Made by a program: the position numbers and the translations under genes. DNA of 64,000 nt from Octopus vulgaris (taxonomy: Eukaryota), in contig OX597831.1 in assembly GCA_951406725.2 (NCBI GenBank), positions 28,644,001 through 28,708,000 of the forward strand, in the 5' to 3' direction. Within the stretch, counting starts at the first letter, position 1; the number at the start of each line of letters is the position of its first letter. Below are positions 4,215 to 23,321 of this stretch, piece by piece. The notes below the pieces were generated by a model, which was not told the origin of the DNA, made no database searches, and was given only the letters and a program-made list of their open reading frames with translations.

Positions 4215-4477
4215 GTGGACGCGCGTGGGTTAGTGGTTAGGGTGTCAGCATCATGATCGTAAGATTGTGGTTTCGATTCCTGGACCGGGCGACGCGTTGT
4301 GTTCTTGAGCAAAACACTTCATTTCACATTGCTCCAGTCCACTCAGCTGGCAAAAATGAGTAAAGCTGCGATGGAGTGGCGTCCCGTCCAGCTGGGGAAC
4401 ACATACGCCATTGAAACTGAGAAACCGGGCCCATGAGCTTGGCTAGGTTTTAAAAGGGCGCATCTATCTTTTTTTAT
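4215..4477 (+). mobile_element. tRNA-headed SINE, family B head with family D tail, flanked by a 13-bp TSD
   Basis: A box tagtggttagg, B box ggtttcgattcc; direct repeat agaacgaatatat at 4202-4214 and 4478-4490. Confidence 0.9.
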
Positions 4478-5060
4478 AGAACGAATATATAGCTTTAAAC
4501 TACAGATGGAAAGAAAAAGTAGAAATAAACTCTTGCATATATGAAAATATAATTAATTTATATCTTCTCTGTGCATCCATCTATAACGGTTTCTTTACTC
4601 CAATATTTCTCTCGGCTTTATATTCAGAATTCAAATTCCGCCGGAATTCCCTTTGCCTTTTATTTTTTCGATGGCGAGGAAAGAGGAACCAGTTGAGCAC
4701 CGGGGACAATGTTACCGACTAGACCACCTATCCCAACCTCCACAAAGTTTCAGGTCTTGGGCCAATAGTAGAAAGAGTTATTTGAAGATATTGCTACTTG
4801 GATTAGCGAGGAGACGGTGGTTTAACTGACTTTAGAAGCGATGATGCCGACAGATTTCAACGCTTTGATAAAATTTAAACACTGTATTATGTTTTGATTT
4901 TTGCTTATAATATACTACTCTGCTAGTTTGTTGCATTATATATAAGTTACTGATTCTATTGTCATTTGTAACGTTTTACAGCTGTTGGTATATTTGCGCT
5001 GTAAATCACTGTATTTCATGTCTGATATACTTGCATTATGTACAATGTACATTTTGTACA

Positions 5061-5468
5061 TAGGCGCAGGAGTGGCTGTGCGGTAAGTAGCTTGCTTATC
5101 AACCACATGGTTCCGGGTTCAGTCCCACAGCGTGGCACCTTGGGCAAGTGTCTTCTACTATAGCCTCGGGCTGACCAATGACTTGCGAGTGGATTCGGTA
5201 GACGGAAACTGAAAGAAGCTCGTCGTATATATGTATATATATATATGTGTGTGTATATTTGTGTGTCTGTGTTTTTCCCCCCCCCAACGCCGCTTGACAA
5301 CCGATGCTGGTGTGTTTACGTCCATGTAACTTAGCGGTTCGGCAAAAGAGACCGATGAAATAAGAACTAGGCTTACAATGAATAAGTCTTGGGGTCGATT
5401 TCCTCGACTAAAGGCGGTGCTCTAGCATGGCCGCAGTCAAATGACTGAAACAAGTAAAAGAGTAAAGA
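5061..5468 (+). mobile_element. Family A SINE, full length
   Basis: taggcgcaggagtggctgtg head, B box gggttcagtccc, internal (TA)n(TG)n, tail gcatggccgcagtcaaatgactgaaacaagtaaaagag; highly similar to the copies at 24366, 42978 and 49864. Confidence 0.92.
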
Positions 5469-5693
5469 TACACGTAAACAAGTTGCTGGAAAATGTTTAC
5501 TGTTACAGCTAAGATATATTTTTGGTTTTCTCATGTCGTATTTTATGAGGACTTTCATGGAAATCTTCACTGTCAATGACTCTCTCTATTTTGTACTAAT
5601 AACGGATGTATCAATATTTTCATTTGTAACTTTATACAGTATTTTTCTGCTGCAACTGAGCTGCTTTTTTCTCTCTCTCTCTCTCTCATTGTT

Positions 5694-5724
<31 letters not shown>

Positions 5725-6203
5725 CTTTTCTTTTTATCTCAGGTTTTGTTGTAACTCCTATAGTCTTGCATGCGTAACGGGCTTGTTGCCTGCAGCTTAC
5801 GGTACCATGCTATATTTTCTTATCAACTCTCTAGTACTTACCTGATTATTCTGACCGTGTCAAGGAGGTAAACCTCTATCATCGTCATCATCATCATCAT
5901 CATCATTATTCAGCAGTCTTATTTTCATCACGTGCTTTCACTGCACTACCGAGCGCAGCTCTGTGTGCCTTGGGTATGTGCTGTAGTTTGTTGTGGTGCT
6001 CTTATTTTCAATGTATTGAAAGTGTTTTACGTAGGATGTATGCGGTGACTAATAGTACAATTTTCTGTATGTTATATTTATATTTGTAAGACGTGTATAC
6101 TTAATTTTTTTATCATTTCATTCTTATATGTAACCACCCCCACTCTTTATATCTGTATTTGTATTGTCCCCCTCATCCTTCAGCCTTGTGGCAAATAAAT
6201 AAA

Positions 6204-6280
<77 letters not shown>

Positions 6281-6292
6281 CATTATTACTAG

Positions 6293-6513
6293 TTAAGGCG
6301 GCGAATTGACAGAATCGTTAGCATGTCGGGCAGGCGAAATGGTTAGCAGTATTACGTCTGCTGTTACGTTCTGAGTTCAAATTCCACCGAGGTCGACTTT
6401 GCCTTTTCATCCTTTCAGGGTCGATAAATTAAATACCAGTGGAACAGTGGGGTCGATGTAATCGACTAGTCCCCTCCCCCAAAATTCCGGATCTTGTGCC
6501 TATAGTAGGAAGG

Positions 6514-6520
<7 letters not shown>
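6293..6520 (+). mobile_element. Family C SINE (central domain resembles the MetaSINE domain) with (ATT)n tail
   Basis: aaggcggcga head, ctgagttcaaattcc B box, gaggtcgactttgccttttcatcctttcagggtcgataaattaaataccag centre, cttgtgcctatagtaggaaggattattatt tail. Confidence 0.85.
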
Positions 6521-6545
<25 letters not shown>

Positions 6546-6847
6546 CATTATTATCATTATTATTATTTTCTCCGCATGTTTTACCCAAGATGTTCCTGTT
6601 ATGCTGTAATCCATTATTCAATAAATACAGAATGGTTAAATATAATAAACGGGTGTTACTGAACAATGAGCCTCAACCGTCATGAAATACAGTAGATGAA
6701 TTGATTTATTCAGTTCAGTCCCACTTTATCCTTCAACCATTTGGAGTTCCATAAAATAAATACAAATTGTCTACTAATGTCGATTAATAAGTTTACTGTT
6801 ACCACTTTCTTGCTCTCACATTTATGTTACTTATATAGAAAATATGA

Positions 6848-7075
6848 CGGGGCGTGGCCTTGTGGTTAAGGTGTTGCACTATCGATTGCTAGATCGTAGG
6901 TTCAATTCCTGGACCGAGCATGTGCTGAGTTCTTGTGCAAAACACTTCACTTTTCGTTGCTCCATTCACCTGTAAATGGGTAATCCTGCGACAGATTAGC
7001 GTTTCGAACAGAGGGAATGCTTGCCTGCATGCCTAACCATCCGATAGTCTGGTCGATCAAATGATCACGTGATAT
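6848..7075 (+). mobile_element. Family B SINE, diverged, ending in tail H
   Basis: ggcgtggccttgtggttaagg...ggttcaattcc head; ends tctggtcgatcaaatgatcacgtgatata like the end of the 36752 copy. Confidence 0.7.
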
Positions 7076-8059
7076 AGAAAACAATTTTTAAAAAACCTCA
7101 CGACTTTAGTTTCATGCCAGCGCGATGTTCACTCGAGAACTGTTGGTCTTTCTACATGTACCCATTGTACTCACAATGCAATAGGTTCTTTTTTTTCCTT
7201 CTTTAGCCGCTGTCTTAGAATGTTTTTGAAATATTATTTTGCTATTTGTTCTGTTGTTTTTTTGGGTCGTTGTCTGTATGTCGTTCAAGTTGGCTAGTCG
7301 TCGATATTATTTTGTTCTATTTATTTTAGGACGTGACTAAGATTTCCGTCGAATATTTTACCCAACCGATGAAAGTATTATATATTCATTAATCAGTTGT
7401 TCCATTCTTTATTTTCATGCGGCTTTGAATTTTATCGTATATTGGGATGCAATCGCTGTTTTACTTCTGATAACCTAATGTTTTCGGTCACAGTTGATTT
7501 GTTTTATATTCTGTGTATTTGTTTATTCTTGCTTAAAATCGAATTTATCTTCTTCATTTCTGATTTTATTTTGCAATGGTTCGTTGGTTACTAGTGACAG
7601 TATCACCGATGTCCTCTTCACGTCGCCTGATTTCAGCTCTCATTTATTCTGTCTAGCTTTTTTGCAAACTGTTTTCCTTTTGCTTTTTTTTTTCCATTTC
7701 TTATAGTTCATTGGTTATTATTTACGGTGCAGAGGTCTTGTATCCTGCGATTGGTGAGATATGCTCTCAGGTTGTGAAATTATTTCTCTGTATGTTTGTG
7801 CACACACACACACACACACACATACACACGCACACACGCGCAAGAATTGCCATACTGCCACGCATACACGCGACCAAACAGTTACACACATATTTAACCT
7901 TGCGCATGCTTATGTGTCCATGGAAGCATACATGAGCATGTATTCAAATGTGAAGGCTGGCGATGAGGAAATAAAGGAAGAAACAGAAAGAGAATATTAA
8001 GGACCATATTTTCCCTCATCATCTTCTTCTAATTATGCTAATTCTGTTTCGTCTATGTT

Positions 8060-15739: not shown

Positions 15740-16630
15740 TTTATATAGCTTTATTAAGAAACATTTCCCATGGCCCCATCAGACAAAATGGAAAAGGCAC
15801 TACTCCAGAGGATGGCGAGGGAGATGCGCTAGAATAGTCACTCTGACTCACAGGACTCGCGAATAGCCATTTCCGCCCTGATAACGGTGAGCAAGGGTAT
15901 GGTCCAGGGGCGAAGAACGCCGGAGGCCTCCAATACCACAGGCTCGACCATAAATCTGCCGGAAAGTGGTCCAGACCTTGATTTTTCTTTTTTCTCAGTC
16001 TGAGGAGCAGCGGAGCCTGGGTTGGTAGCTGAACACACAAAGTTTCTACTGGACAAGGTGTCACAGCATGTAGTATCCCAGCTGAGGATCCTACTTCCAC
16101 GGAACCGGTAAATTGTCACACCGTTCGGCCTTTTACCGTTTCGGTGTAGCCCTGCTGACTCAAGCTTGGAAGAGAAGCCTGCAGTTTCCAAGCCTTGCTT
16201 TATGCTTTCGTTAAGGGCAGTATGGCATAGAAGGCGGCCAGCACTATGAAGGCATGACAATGGGTGGATGCCAAAAGAATCCAAGGTGGATCTACAGAGG
16301 CGTTTGTGAGGCTCACAGATCTGGAAGCCAAGCTTCAAGGAAACATCGATGCGCAGACAGTTGCTATCAAGCTGAGTGGCAGTTGCGAATGATGGCACCG
16401 CATGGAGCCAAGCGCGGAGGCTGAACGGACACATGCCAGGCGGTGCTGGTCAAGTCGGTGCACTAGTTTGTCCGCGATCATACTAGATCAGACGGCGTCC
16501 AATTTCTTTTGAGTGAAACGGACGTTCACAGAGAGGAGAGGGGCTTGGACCTCAGCAGGGTGCAGGCCGAGCTGGATCCATGTCGCGTTGGGTGTCTCGC
16601 TTTCCCCAATCACAGATAGTTCAGTTATGC
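15740..16630 (-). pseudogene. CRE-clade non-LTR retrotransposon remnant: Zn-knuckle plus restriction-like (PD-D/ExK) endonuclease C-terminus
   Basis: ORF 15838..16434: AWL.AVP...L.LG..ICEPH..C...DSFG.HPLSC..SAGR..CH.ALN...LE.AGL..NGKRPNG.T......L.WD.TC.DT...G.AA...E..K......P..LE.SG; continues through stops as RISLAI; aataaa follows. The usual catalytic RPDG reads RPNG. Confidence 0.85.
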
Positions 16631-20497: not shown

Positions 20498-21292
20498 GTA
20501 TATACTCATGCACACATGTATACACACCGTACGTGCGTGGATTTTGCATATTTATTTTTTGTGTTTGATTTATACATTTGTTTTGTGTGTTTTTTATATA
20601 TTCAGTCATGTGTTTTTTAAGTATGTTTGCATTTTATTTTTTTTTATTGATTTTTTTCTCTCATATATTTGCTGATGTCTTCTCGACTTATTTCTCATCG
20701 ATAAACATTTCTCTTTCTCTCACCCTTTCCCCACCCTCTCTCACTCTCTGTCGTTTTCACCCCTCTATTTACTACTCTCTCTCTCTCTCTCTCTCCTTAT
20801 CTGTCTTCTTATCTATCTATATGTGTTTGTGTGTGTATGTTTTATATGTGTATACTCATATGAATATGTATACATATATACATACATACATATGTATATA
20901 CATATATATATATATGTATATATATAAGCATACATAAAGTTATATATTTATTCATACACATATATATATACATACATACATATGCATATATATATTTGCA
21001 TATATACATATATATAAATACATATGCATACATATATGTATGTATATATATATATATACATACATAATTAATCAATATAGGGTGGCAAAAAAATTTTGTA
21101 GAATCTTATTGCCACCAGCGGCCTAGTGGGAAAAAATTAAATAGTCATAAACCATTTTTAAGTTCAGCATCACAATCAAGGAACGGCCATAATAGGCCAT
21201 TCACCCACTAGAAATAACACCCAAAAGCTTCAACCGCAAAATAACATCAATTCCGTAAACCAGGAGAAAATTAAAAAAACATTTACCCTGTA

Positions 21293-21399
21293 ATTTCTTA
21301 GACGATGCACCGTTTCGTCTACTGTTTAATGGTAAACTAACCTGATTAAATTAAATCAAGCCAATCTACCATAGGCCCTTAGATTCATCAGTAAGAAAT
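21293..21399 (-). ncRNA. Type I hammerhead ribozyme, array unit 1 (GUC triplet)
   Basis: Minus strand: AUUUCUUA-CUGAUGA-aUCUA-[long hairpin]-UAGAc-GAAA-CGGUGCAUCG-UC-UAAGAAAU; 8-bp stem I, self-complementary stem III. Confidence 0.85.
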
Positions 21400-21781
21400 A
21401 GCCAAGTCGGAACAGATATTTTTCACGAGGCATTCCCGTCCCTGCATCGGCAATATCTGACCTAAAATTTTCAAATCATCGCACTCGCGCCAAATTTATC
21501 GGCAGCAAATAAATATAAGCCGCCGATTCCATTACGGAATCAACCAGAAAATTCATAATTAATCAATATAGGGTGGCAAAAAAATTTTTTAGAATTTTTT
21601 GCCACCAGCGGCCTAGTGCGAAAAAATTAAATAGTCATAGACCATTTTTAAGTTCAACATCACAATCAAGGAACGGCCATAATAGGCCATTCACCCACTA
21701 GAAATAACAGCCAAAGCTTCAACCGCAAAATAACATCAATTCCGTAAACCAGGAGAAAATTAAAAAAACATTTACCCTGTA

Positions 21782-21888
21782 ATTTCTTATACGATGCACC
21801 GTTTCGTCTACTGTTTAATGGTAAACTAACCTGATTAAATTAAATCAAGCCAATCTACCATAGGCCCTTAGATTCATCAGTAAGAAAT
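21782..21888 (-). ncRNA. Type I hammerhead ribozyme, array unit 2 (GUA triplet)
   Basis: Same fold as unit 1; cleavage site reads ...CAUCGUA-UAAGAAAU. Confidence 0.85.
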
Positions 21889-22272
21889 AGCCAAGTCGGA
21901 ACAGATATTTTTCACGAGGCATTCCCGTCCCTGCATCGGCAATATCTGACCTAAAATTTTCAAATCATCGCACTCGCGCCAAATTTATCGGCAGCAAATA
22001 AATATAAGCCGCCGATTCCATTACGGAACTAACCAGAAAATTCATAATTAATCAATATAGGGTGGCAAAAAAATTTTGTAGAATCTTATTGCCACCAGCG
22101 GCATAGTGGGAAAAAATTAAATAGTCATAAACCATTTTTAAGTTCAACATCACAATCAAGGAACGGCCATAATAGGCCATTCACCCACTAGAAATAACAG
22201 CCAAAAGCTTCAACCGCAAAATAACATCAATTCCGTAAACCAGGAGAAAATTAAAAAAACATTTACCCTGTA

Positions 22273-22379
22273 ATTTCTTATACGATGCACCGTTTCGTCT
22301 ACTGTTTAATGGTAAACTAACCTGATTAAATTAAATCAAGCCAATCTACCATAGGCCCTTAGATTCATCAGTAAGAAAT
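22273..22379 (-). ncRNA. Type I hammerhead ribozyme, array unit 3 (GUA triplet)
   Basis: Same fold and core as unit 2. Confidence 0.85.
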
Positions 22380-22764
22380 AGCCAAGTCGGAACAGATATT
22401 TTTCACGAGGCATTCCCGTCCCTGCATCGGCAATATCTGACCTAAAATTTTCAAATCATCGCACTCGCGCCAAATTTATCGGCAGCAAATAAATATAAGC
22501 CGCCGATTCCATTACGGAACTAACCAGAAAATTCATAATTAATCAATATAGGGTGGCAAAAAAATTTTGTAGAATCTTATTGCCACCAGCGGCCTAGTGG
22601 GAAAAAATTAAATAGTCATAAACCATTTTTAAGTTCAACATCACAATCAAGGAACGGCCATAATAGGCCATTCACCCACTAGAAATAACAGCCAAAAGCT
22701 TCAACCGCAAAATAACATCAATTCCGTAAACCAGGAGAAAATTAAAAAAAACATTTACCCTGTA

Positions 22765-22870
22765 ATTTCTTATACGATGCACCGTTTCGTCTACTGTTTA
22801 ATGGTAAACTAACCTGATTAAATTAAATCAAGCCAATCTACCATAGGCCCTTAGATTCACAGTAAGAAAT
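22765..22870 (-). ncRNA. Hammerhead, array unit 4, with a 1-nt core deletion
   Basis: Plus strand reads ttcacag instead of ttcatcag, so the core is CUG-UGA instead of CUGAUGA. Confidence 0.7.
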
Positions 22871-23233
22871 AGCCAAGTCGGAACAGATATTTTTCACGAG
22901 GCATTCCCGTCCCTGCATCGGCAATATCTGACCTAAAATTTTCAAATCATCGCACTCGCGCCAAATTTATCGGCAGCAAATAAATATAAGCCGCCGATTC
23001 CATTACGGAACTAACCAGAAAATTCATAATTAATCAATATAGGGTGGCAAAAAAATTTTGTAGAATCTTATTGCCACCAGCGGCCTAGTGGGAAAAAATT
23101 AAATAGTCATAAACCATTTTTAAGTTCAACATCACAATCAAGGAACGGCCATAATAGGCCATTCACCCACTAGAAATAACAGCCAAAAGCTTCAACCGCA
23201 AAATAACATCAATTCCGTAAACCAGGAGAAAAT

Positions 23234-23321
23234 TTTAATTTAATCAGGTTAGTTTACCATTAAACAGTAGACGAAACGGTGCATCGTATAAGAAATTACC
23301 GGGTAAATGTTTTTTTAATTT
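23234..23321 (+). repeat. Inverted terminal segment of the array containing the 3' half of the hammerhead
   Basis: tttaatttaatcaggttag...gtagacgaaacggtgcatcgtataagaaattaccgggtaaatgtttttttaattt is the reverse complement (1 mismatch) of the 88 bp expected next in the unit. Confidence 0.95.

Follow-up and report, generated by a model that had tools for sequence, protein, structure and literature searches.

The hammerhead motif considered here belongs to a 490-nt non-coding tandem retrozyme, for which a Penelope-like element (PLE) likely provides the copying in trans and whose long loop-II hairpin is likely a fixed arm and not a switch, a reading that we hold as a whole with good, though not full, confidence. 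The motif lies in a tandem array on the minus strand of the window, i.e. the whole 64-kb stretch of DNA that was analysed, and the features of motif, array, and insertion ends are compiled in Table 1.

The hammerhead motif and its repeat family

The motif is predicted to form a complete type I hammerhead, with the core CUGANGA/GAAA, the A15.1–U16.1 pair, and H17 all in place, and with three helices, stem I being open, that are backed by compensatory change; the core is intact in 224 of the 227 copies sampled. The numbering of hammerhead positions is the one we take to apply from a reading of the motifs and of the cited passages. Loop II extends to 58 nt and harbours the hairpin, in which all 19 positions pair, 14 by Watson–Crick pairs and five by G·U wobbles, as the sequence-only reading had laid out. 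That reading had further taken the strand asymmetry of the wobbles to point to the minus strand, and folding of a 171-nt region on both strands agreed with it: the minus strand, to be regarded as the functional one, gave z = −3.04, with none of 200 shuffles equally stable, versus z = −0.69 and 43 of 200 for the plus strand. In a single linear 371-nt context, the hairpin pairs reach probabilities of 0.78–1.0, and the active stems only ≈ 0.03. By eye, loop I and loop II could contact each other through a pairing GGC(U)/(G)GCC in families A, B, and D of the element.

Table 1. Features of the hammerhead motif, the array, and the insertion ends (window positions)
Feature	Position	Strand	Remarks
Type I hammerhead, complete (predicted)	21293..21399	minus	
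Stem I, 5′ strand	21392..21399	minus	pairs with 21300–21293; compensatory changes at 3 of 6 pairs
Catalytic core CUGAUGA (C3–A9)	21385..21391	minus	
Stem II, 5′ strand	21380..21384	minus	A10.1 = 21384, opposite C11.1 = 21317
Stem II, 3′ strand	21317..21321	minus	
19-bp hairpin in loop II	21329..21372	minus	5′ arm 21372–21354, 6-nt A/U loop 21353–21348, 3′ arm 21347–21329; 7-nt linkers on both sides
GAAA core (21316–21313) and near-palindromic 12-nt stem III/loop III	21302..21316	minus	
Predicted cleavage site after GUC	21300..21301	minus	C17 = 21301; hammerhead consensus
Tandem array, ≈ 4.4 retrozyme units	21060..23234	minus	period 491 bp, 98% matches
Short inverted arm	23234..23321	plus	hammerhead 3′ half only and 34 nt past the cleavage site, then (TA)n
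Second hammerhead copy	21782..21888	minus	GUA triplet
Third hammerhead copy	22273..22379	minus	GUA triplet
Fourth hammerhead copy	22765..22870	minus	one-base core deletion (22862 region)
Degenerate (TA)n microsatellite	20864..21063		inferred target site
Hairpin, then 3′ end E1 (unit position ≈ 132)	21169..21210	minus	inferred reverse-transcription start; internal here
Hairpin, then 3′ end E2 (unit position ≈ 236)	21064..21117	minus	end used by the window insertion

The array is flanked by (TA)n repeats on both sides and holds no open frame of at least 120 aa; its core is intact in three of the four complete units, and the fourth copy is likely inactive. The inverted arm of this insertion ends at unit position 34, which is atypical, being neither E1 nor E2. 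An upstream CGAUGCA able to pair with stem III occurs, among the copies compared, in the window's array only, and is therefore not a family feature. Across the genome, which is microsatellite-rich and 2.8 Gb in size, an exact 25-nt hairpin pattern gave 2,756 matches, and the family comprises ≈ 2,750 copies with a unit of ≈ 490 nt; subfamily patterns matched 659 times for A10.1 with U7, 436 times for G10.1, 1,527 times for non-U7, and 155 times for C11.1. Three more distant families (B, C, and D) are homologous over the unit. The monomer is highly self-paired (z = −6.84) and low in G+C, and no LTR arrangement was seen in the architecture of the repeat family. Judged by these sequence properties, the element is a non-LTR retrozyme, displaying the testable features of the metazoan non-LTR retrozymes. 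In the main texts covered, no account was found of this family or of a retrozyme with a long hairpin in loop II, although consensus hammerhead drawings in supplements may show similar inserts.

At the gathering score, Rfam returned no hammerhead match in the 64-kb window, likely as a result of the 58-nt loop II, which touches a criterion of detection and not a defining feature of the motif. A pattern scan of flanking sequences brought up other, unrelated hammerhead-like motifs with long inserts in stem II or loop II (L187:+1017, L235:-1812, L165:-1737, L149:-747, L143:+3822, L138:+1440, and L269:-1506), as well as compact ones (L046, L122, and L014), and this genome may thus hold many hammerheads with a long loop II. 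Given that a long-loop-II hammerhead was missed by Rfam and that further families of this kind are suggested by hits read by eye, such searches likely undercount. Elsewhere in the window, at 15838–16449 on the minus strand, there is a 203-aa stop-to-stop frame, presumably the remnant of a retroelement protein, as assessed by eye from a motif.

The loop-II hairpin and the closing pair of stem II

The hairpin was found in all four homologous families. Families A and B are 75% identical overall and keep 38 of the 44 hairpin positions in common; within family A, a lower variability of the hairpin relative to the remainder of the unit was not clearly evident (five recurrent alleles in 44 nt versus 62 in 378). 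In an alignment of families A, B, and C (22 rows), 92.6% of the hairpin cells are paired, with three pairs often broken; eight of the 19 pairs are invariant, nine vary on one side, mostly in a manner that keeps the pair, one varies on both sides, and one departs by unpaired cells only. At pair 5 (21368/21333), U-A occurs in 98 of 227 copies, A·A in 104, and U·U in 24, with one gap, such that a stem with all 19 pairs unbroken characterizes a subfamily. The window copy differs from family C at eight sites of the 44-nt hairpin, every one of which keeps the pairing (P = 0.043 if transitions only are assumed, P = 0.002 with one third transversions); as transitions are easily absorbed by a G·U-rich stem, the support from this comparison is moderate. 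Family D (19 rows) has an 11-bp stem of other sequence, 95.7% paired, in which an A-U/G·U/G-C series occurs. The length of the hairpin varies in families B and D through gain or loss of UUUAA units.

Covariation across homologous units, which the sequence-only reading had named as a check, came out in part: it was seen for stems I–III, and not for the hairpin alone when set against shuffled controls. In families A–C the hairpin shows a single double change, a score reached by 500 of 500 shuffles, and in family D it was likewise not above control (97 of 500). Stems I and III together with the hairpin hold 24 double-change cells versus a shuffled mean of 9.9, a control that is inflated by related rows, and none of 500 shuffles came up to this number. 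Taken together, the persistence of the hairpin in four families and the pair-keeping differences from family C make it look, at a moderate level of support from sequence comparison, as if the hairpin were selected as an RNA structure, as that reading had suggested. One could hold instead that the hairpin, having arisen long ago by fold-back or slippage in an A/U-rich loop, is carried along almost neutrally by a young repeat family, and that transposition may not need the ribozyme at all. The weak formal covariation of the hairpin, its UUUAA length changes, and its three often broken pairs would fit this, as would the hammerhead mutants of the element PAc that, according to the accessible portion of PMC11167929, still insert in vitro. 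It is nevertheless very improbable in view of the hairpin positions shared by A and B despite their overall divergence, the mostly pair-keeping one-sided changes, the differently built but paired stem of family D, and the covariation of stems I–III.

In silico removal of the hairpin rendered the active fold less favourable by 0–3.3 kcal/mol in all but one sequence; the exception is a fold-back locus, where the motif as a whole is sequestered in the inverted arm by > 50 kcal/mol. We regard the hairpin as probably a fixed arm of structural nature, carried by stem II, and not as a switch. A conformational switch had been proposed earlier on the basis of an alternative AUCUA/UAGAU pairing, in which the 5′ strand of stem II would bind UAGAU of the hairpin as an off state and the A·C closing pair of stem II would tune the balance. 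The complementarity is present in the sequence, the helix appears transiently in folds of the growing chain (peak probability 0.27, before the 3′ arm of the hairpin exists), and A·C lineages have transposed (43 loci among the first 100 matches). Competition with the active fold was not borne out: once the hairpin is complete the probability of this helix is near zero, amounting to 0.0 to five decimals in the 371-nt context. Moreover, most subfamilies carry a changed UAGAU (GAAGAU, GUGGAU), families B–D keep a hairpin despite a different stem II, and A·C is a minority state that does not form one clade, so that a switch of this kind has to be considered highly unlikely.

The A·C mismatch closing stem II in the window copy was confirmed. 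Pair 10.1–11.1 was surveyed in 227 family-A copies, which were drawn from 91 of 92 non-overlapping loci, mostly on contig C1, in a selection that depends on the search patterns. A-U accounts for 133 of these copies, G·U for 50, A·C for 41, and U·U for three; the exact matches to the C11.1 pattern, set against those to the hairpin, correspond to A·C in ≈ 6% of copies. In families B and D the pair is mostly G-C, and the combination of G10.1 with C11.1 has one exact match in the genome, at a divergent family-A-like locus (L303, C14:10474377-10477456, positions 1094–1720). The opposite arm of this locus carries A10.1·C11.1, and its three hairpin changes all keep the pairing, as compared by eye. 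Pair 10.5–11.5 of stem II shows an A-U to G-C switch, with A-U in 161, G-C in 48, and A·A in 18 of the 227 copies.

A tree was built from 58 full units, one for each locus that has such a unit, with the midpoint root on family B. In it, A-U units are basal, and a grade of A·C units gives rise to further A-U and G·U units; it follows that A·C lineages transposed and that the pair was restored later. A single A·C clade was recovered in 0% of 200 bootstrap trees, and at least two changes are forced, although the bootstrap is rough and had not converged. Nor do A·C units give longer arrays, with 100 matches in 43 loci compared to 100 in 40 for G·U, counted by hand over the first 100 matches listed for each. 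In the accessible portion of PMC3088659, pair 10.1–11.1 is described as the most conserved one after A15.1–U16.1, usually G-C, with natural mismatches on record, from which a weaker but working ribozyme would be expected with A·C; the part of PMC9901934 at hand holds no information on this pair. Of the earlier proposal of a ribozyme tuned down by A·C, the chemistry is plausible, but the mismatch is not maintained, given its low frequency and its failure to form one clade. A10.1·C11.1 is probably a tolerated, weakening allele that has arisen and been replaced within active lineages.

Predicted cleavage, probable mobilisation, and possible editing

Stem III is worth −0.2 kcal/mol alone and −17.5 kcal/mol as a dimer, and its centre is palindromic both as TGCA (181 of 227 copies) and as TATA (40 of 227). 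For a two-unit RNA, a double hammerhead was calculated at −208.5, two single hammerheads at −198.4, and the free fold at −210.4 kcal/mol, so that the free fold is undercut by neither, the double form lying 1.9 kcal/mol and the two single ones 12 kcal/mol higher; once the monomer is circular, stems I–III have a probability of ≤ 0.017. All these figures are predictions of an energy model that leaves out tertiary contacts. They match the dimer model of hammerhead cleavage as described in the accessible parts of PMC4209133 and PMC6155905, and from the near-palindromic stem III a mechanism by double hammerheads is to be expected. In a tandem transcript, two neighbouring motifs would join through stem III into a double hammerhead, which would cut the transcript into 490-nt monomers; the latter could be ligated into circles, with the core folded away. 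The hairpin would fold independently, hold its 44 nt off the core, and slightly favour stem II. A point against the main reading is that, in the portion of bioRxiv 10.64898/2026.07.22.740005 available, only one of nine predicted retrozymes cleaved in vitro.

The ends of the insertions bear on the mode of copying. Among 155 3′ termini from 86 independent loci, 141 lie at E1 (unit positions 126–137) or E2 (225–245), and 138 of these 141 run into (TA)n; at 52 of the 86 loci, the opposite arms comprise one E1 and one E2 end. A hairpin precedes each 3′ end, the two ends are ≈ 104 nt apart, and family D uses the same ones. For PLEs, partial tandems, inverted arms, a tail of 30–40 nt, and a bias towards microsatellites are described in the accessible text of PMC8557442, and that of PMC11167929 shows the tail to be bounded by two internal starts of reverse transcription. 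This genome abounds in an intact Neptune-like PLE that shares target and geometry with the retrozyme; other PLE families were seen as fragments only. The frames of the Neptune-like PLE (L258–L267, e.g. C6:17950000-17958000) span ≈ 811 aa, with reverse transcriptase, a Cys-rich linker, and GIY-YIG, and it is apparently active; a first look returned 15,798 candidates, and it has a (TA)n target, inverted arms, and a tail of, by eye, ≈ 39 nt. The names Neptune and GIY-YIG are those we take to apply from motif reading and cited passages, Pfam having confirmed RVT_1 only. Its 3′ UTR holds, again by eye, a minimal hammerhead-like motif with U3 and A8 in place of C3 and G8. As a source of the retrozyme unit this 3′ UTR was discarded, since the best match was an 18-nt A/T run (one Neptune-like family compared), nor did a repeat homologous to the unit turn up in any autonomous element.

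At one locus (L300, C5:125645500-125655400, minus strand, 4378–7364), a two-armed Neptune-like insertion is joined directly to a family-B unit: its direct arm passes, at a short microhomology and without (TA)n, into a family-B retrozyme that ends at E2. Being a single case, a template-switch chimera or a nested insertion, it is suggestive only. In the proposed course of events, the PLE protein would bind the retrozyme RNA and nick the (TA)n target on both strands, and reverse transcription from the two internal sites E1 and E2 would yield the tandem and inverted arms.

A lead of another kind is provided by four of 23 listed sequencing runs, available as contigs with differing organism labels, of which three are guessed to be RNA and one, of high depth and unknown kind, was taken as DNA. 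In the three probable RNA runs, T>C changes (A>G on the minus strand) make up 28 of 52, 29 of 67, and 41 of 92 transitions, 0.26 being the share expected (P from 1e-5 to 1e-3, window positions 21200–21900); the high-depth control has seven of 25 and no excess, and a Fisher test of probable RNA versus control runs gave P = 0.09. G was read at 21301 in all three probable RNA runs, at 21313 in two, and at 21314 in one, and also, among the rows listed, at 21298, 21320, 21327, and 21346; at none of these positions does any of the 227 genomic copies carry G. As position 21301 is either C (97) or A (130) in the genomic copies, the G there fits an edited A17. The A-to-G changes at A14, A15.1, and site 17 of the core suggest editing by ADAR. 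A fixation of edited templates in the genome was not seen (A>G 20 versus T>C 21, P = 0.34; 54 of 83 loci with enough units), and the main texts covered describe no editing of a natural retrozyme.

These data bear on the proposal that a dsRNA-binding protein, be it ADAR or that of the PLE, docks on the hairpin and controls the ribozyme: cleavage would be damped by editing of A14, A15.1, or A17, and in the A·C subfamily an edited A10.1 would restore an I-C closing pair. Besides the A>G excess and its extension to core positions, two observations from the accessible parts of the sources lend themselves to it: inosine at position 17 slowed one engineered hammerhead ≈ 30-fold (PMC3923133), and the PAc hammerhead requires its protein for cleavage (PMC11167929). 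The runs, however, are contigs of guessed RNA nature with organism labels unlike that of the control; the rows listed, with 130 more beyond them, do not cover position 21384; the changes extend across the whole unit, as a fold-back of inverted arms predicts and the hairpin does not; genomic copies lack the excess; and G17 variants of tertiary-stabilised hammerheads still cleave (PMC3884650, as far as accessible). A docking role is accordingly unlikely, the fold-back explaining the editing without one for the hairpin. Its strongest version, in which the G·U-rich hairpin would recruit ADAR and make this a natural editing-gated hammerhead, with the effects just named at A14, A15.1, A17, and A10.1, we rate as quite unlikely; if it were true, damped cleavage would protect host transcripts that bear these insertions. 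The preferred reading of the hairpin thus remains that of a structural arm, and ADAR editing of a catalytic core stands beside it as a testable lead.

Relation to known systems

The comparisons below refer to those parts of the cited sources that were accessible. The element resembles the metazoan non-LTR retrozymes (PMC7229834; bioRxiv 10.64898/2026.07.22.740005) in its short non-coding tandem units with one type I hammerhead each, its many dispersed loci, its low G+C content, and its highly self-paired monomer. In contrast to their compact helix II, it has the 58-nt loop II with a 19-bp hairpin, and its pair 10.1–11.1 is mostly A-U or G·U, unlike in the metazoan retrozymes described. The unit of ≈ 490 nt is above the range of 170–400 nt given in 2020 (PMC7229834), and within that of 51–972 nt in bioRxiv 10.64898/2026.07.22.740005.

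With the EN+ PLEs Neptune and Poseidon (PMC8557442, PMC11167929, PMC4209133) it has in common partial tandems, an inverted 5′-truncated arm, (TA)n targets, and two internal 3′ ends downstream of the hammerhead. It differs from them in the lack of an open frame, in a full-size hammerhead where that of the PLEs is minimal, and in the length of the E1–E2 stretch, ≈ 104 nt compared to a PLE tail of 30–40 nt (≈ 39 nt in the local Neptune-like family). Throughout the family, a non-autonomous RNA whose tail is unusually long would bear a clean footprint of the two PLE reverse-transcription starts; the E1/E2 footprint supports a link between retrozymes and PLEs outside vertebrates, and the 490-nt unit offers itself as a minimal template for in vitro priming tests.

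The double hammerheads of newt satellite 2, ASBVd, and Aedes repeats (PMC6155905, PMC3088659) likewise have a weak palindromic stem III between adjacent motifs; here, this stem is a 12-nt near-palindrome with G·U pairs, and loop II carries a large insert. The class of element is already known, and it is the long loop-II hairpin, the relaxed 10.1–11.1 pair, and the long tail that set this one apart.
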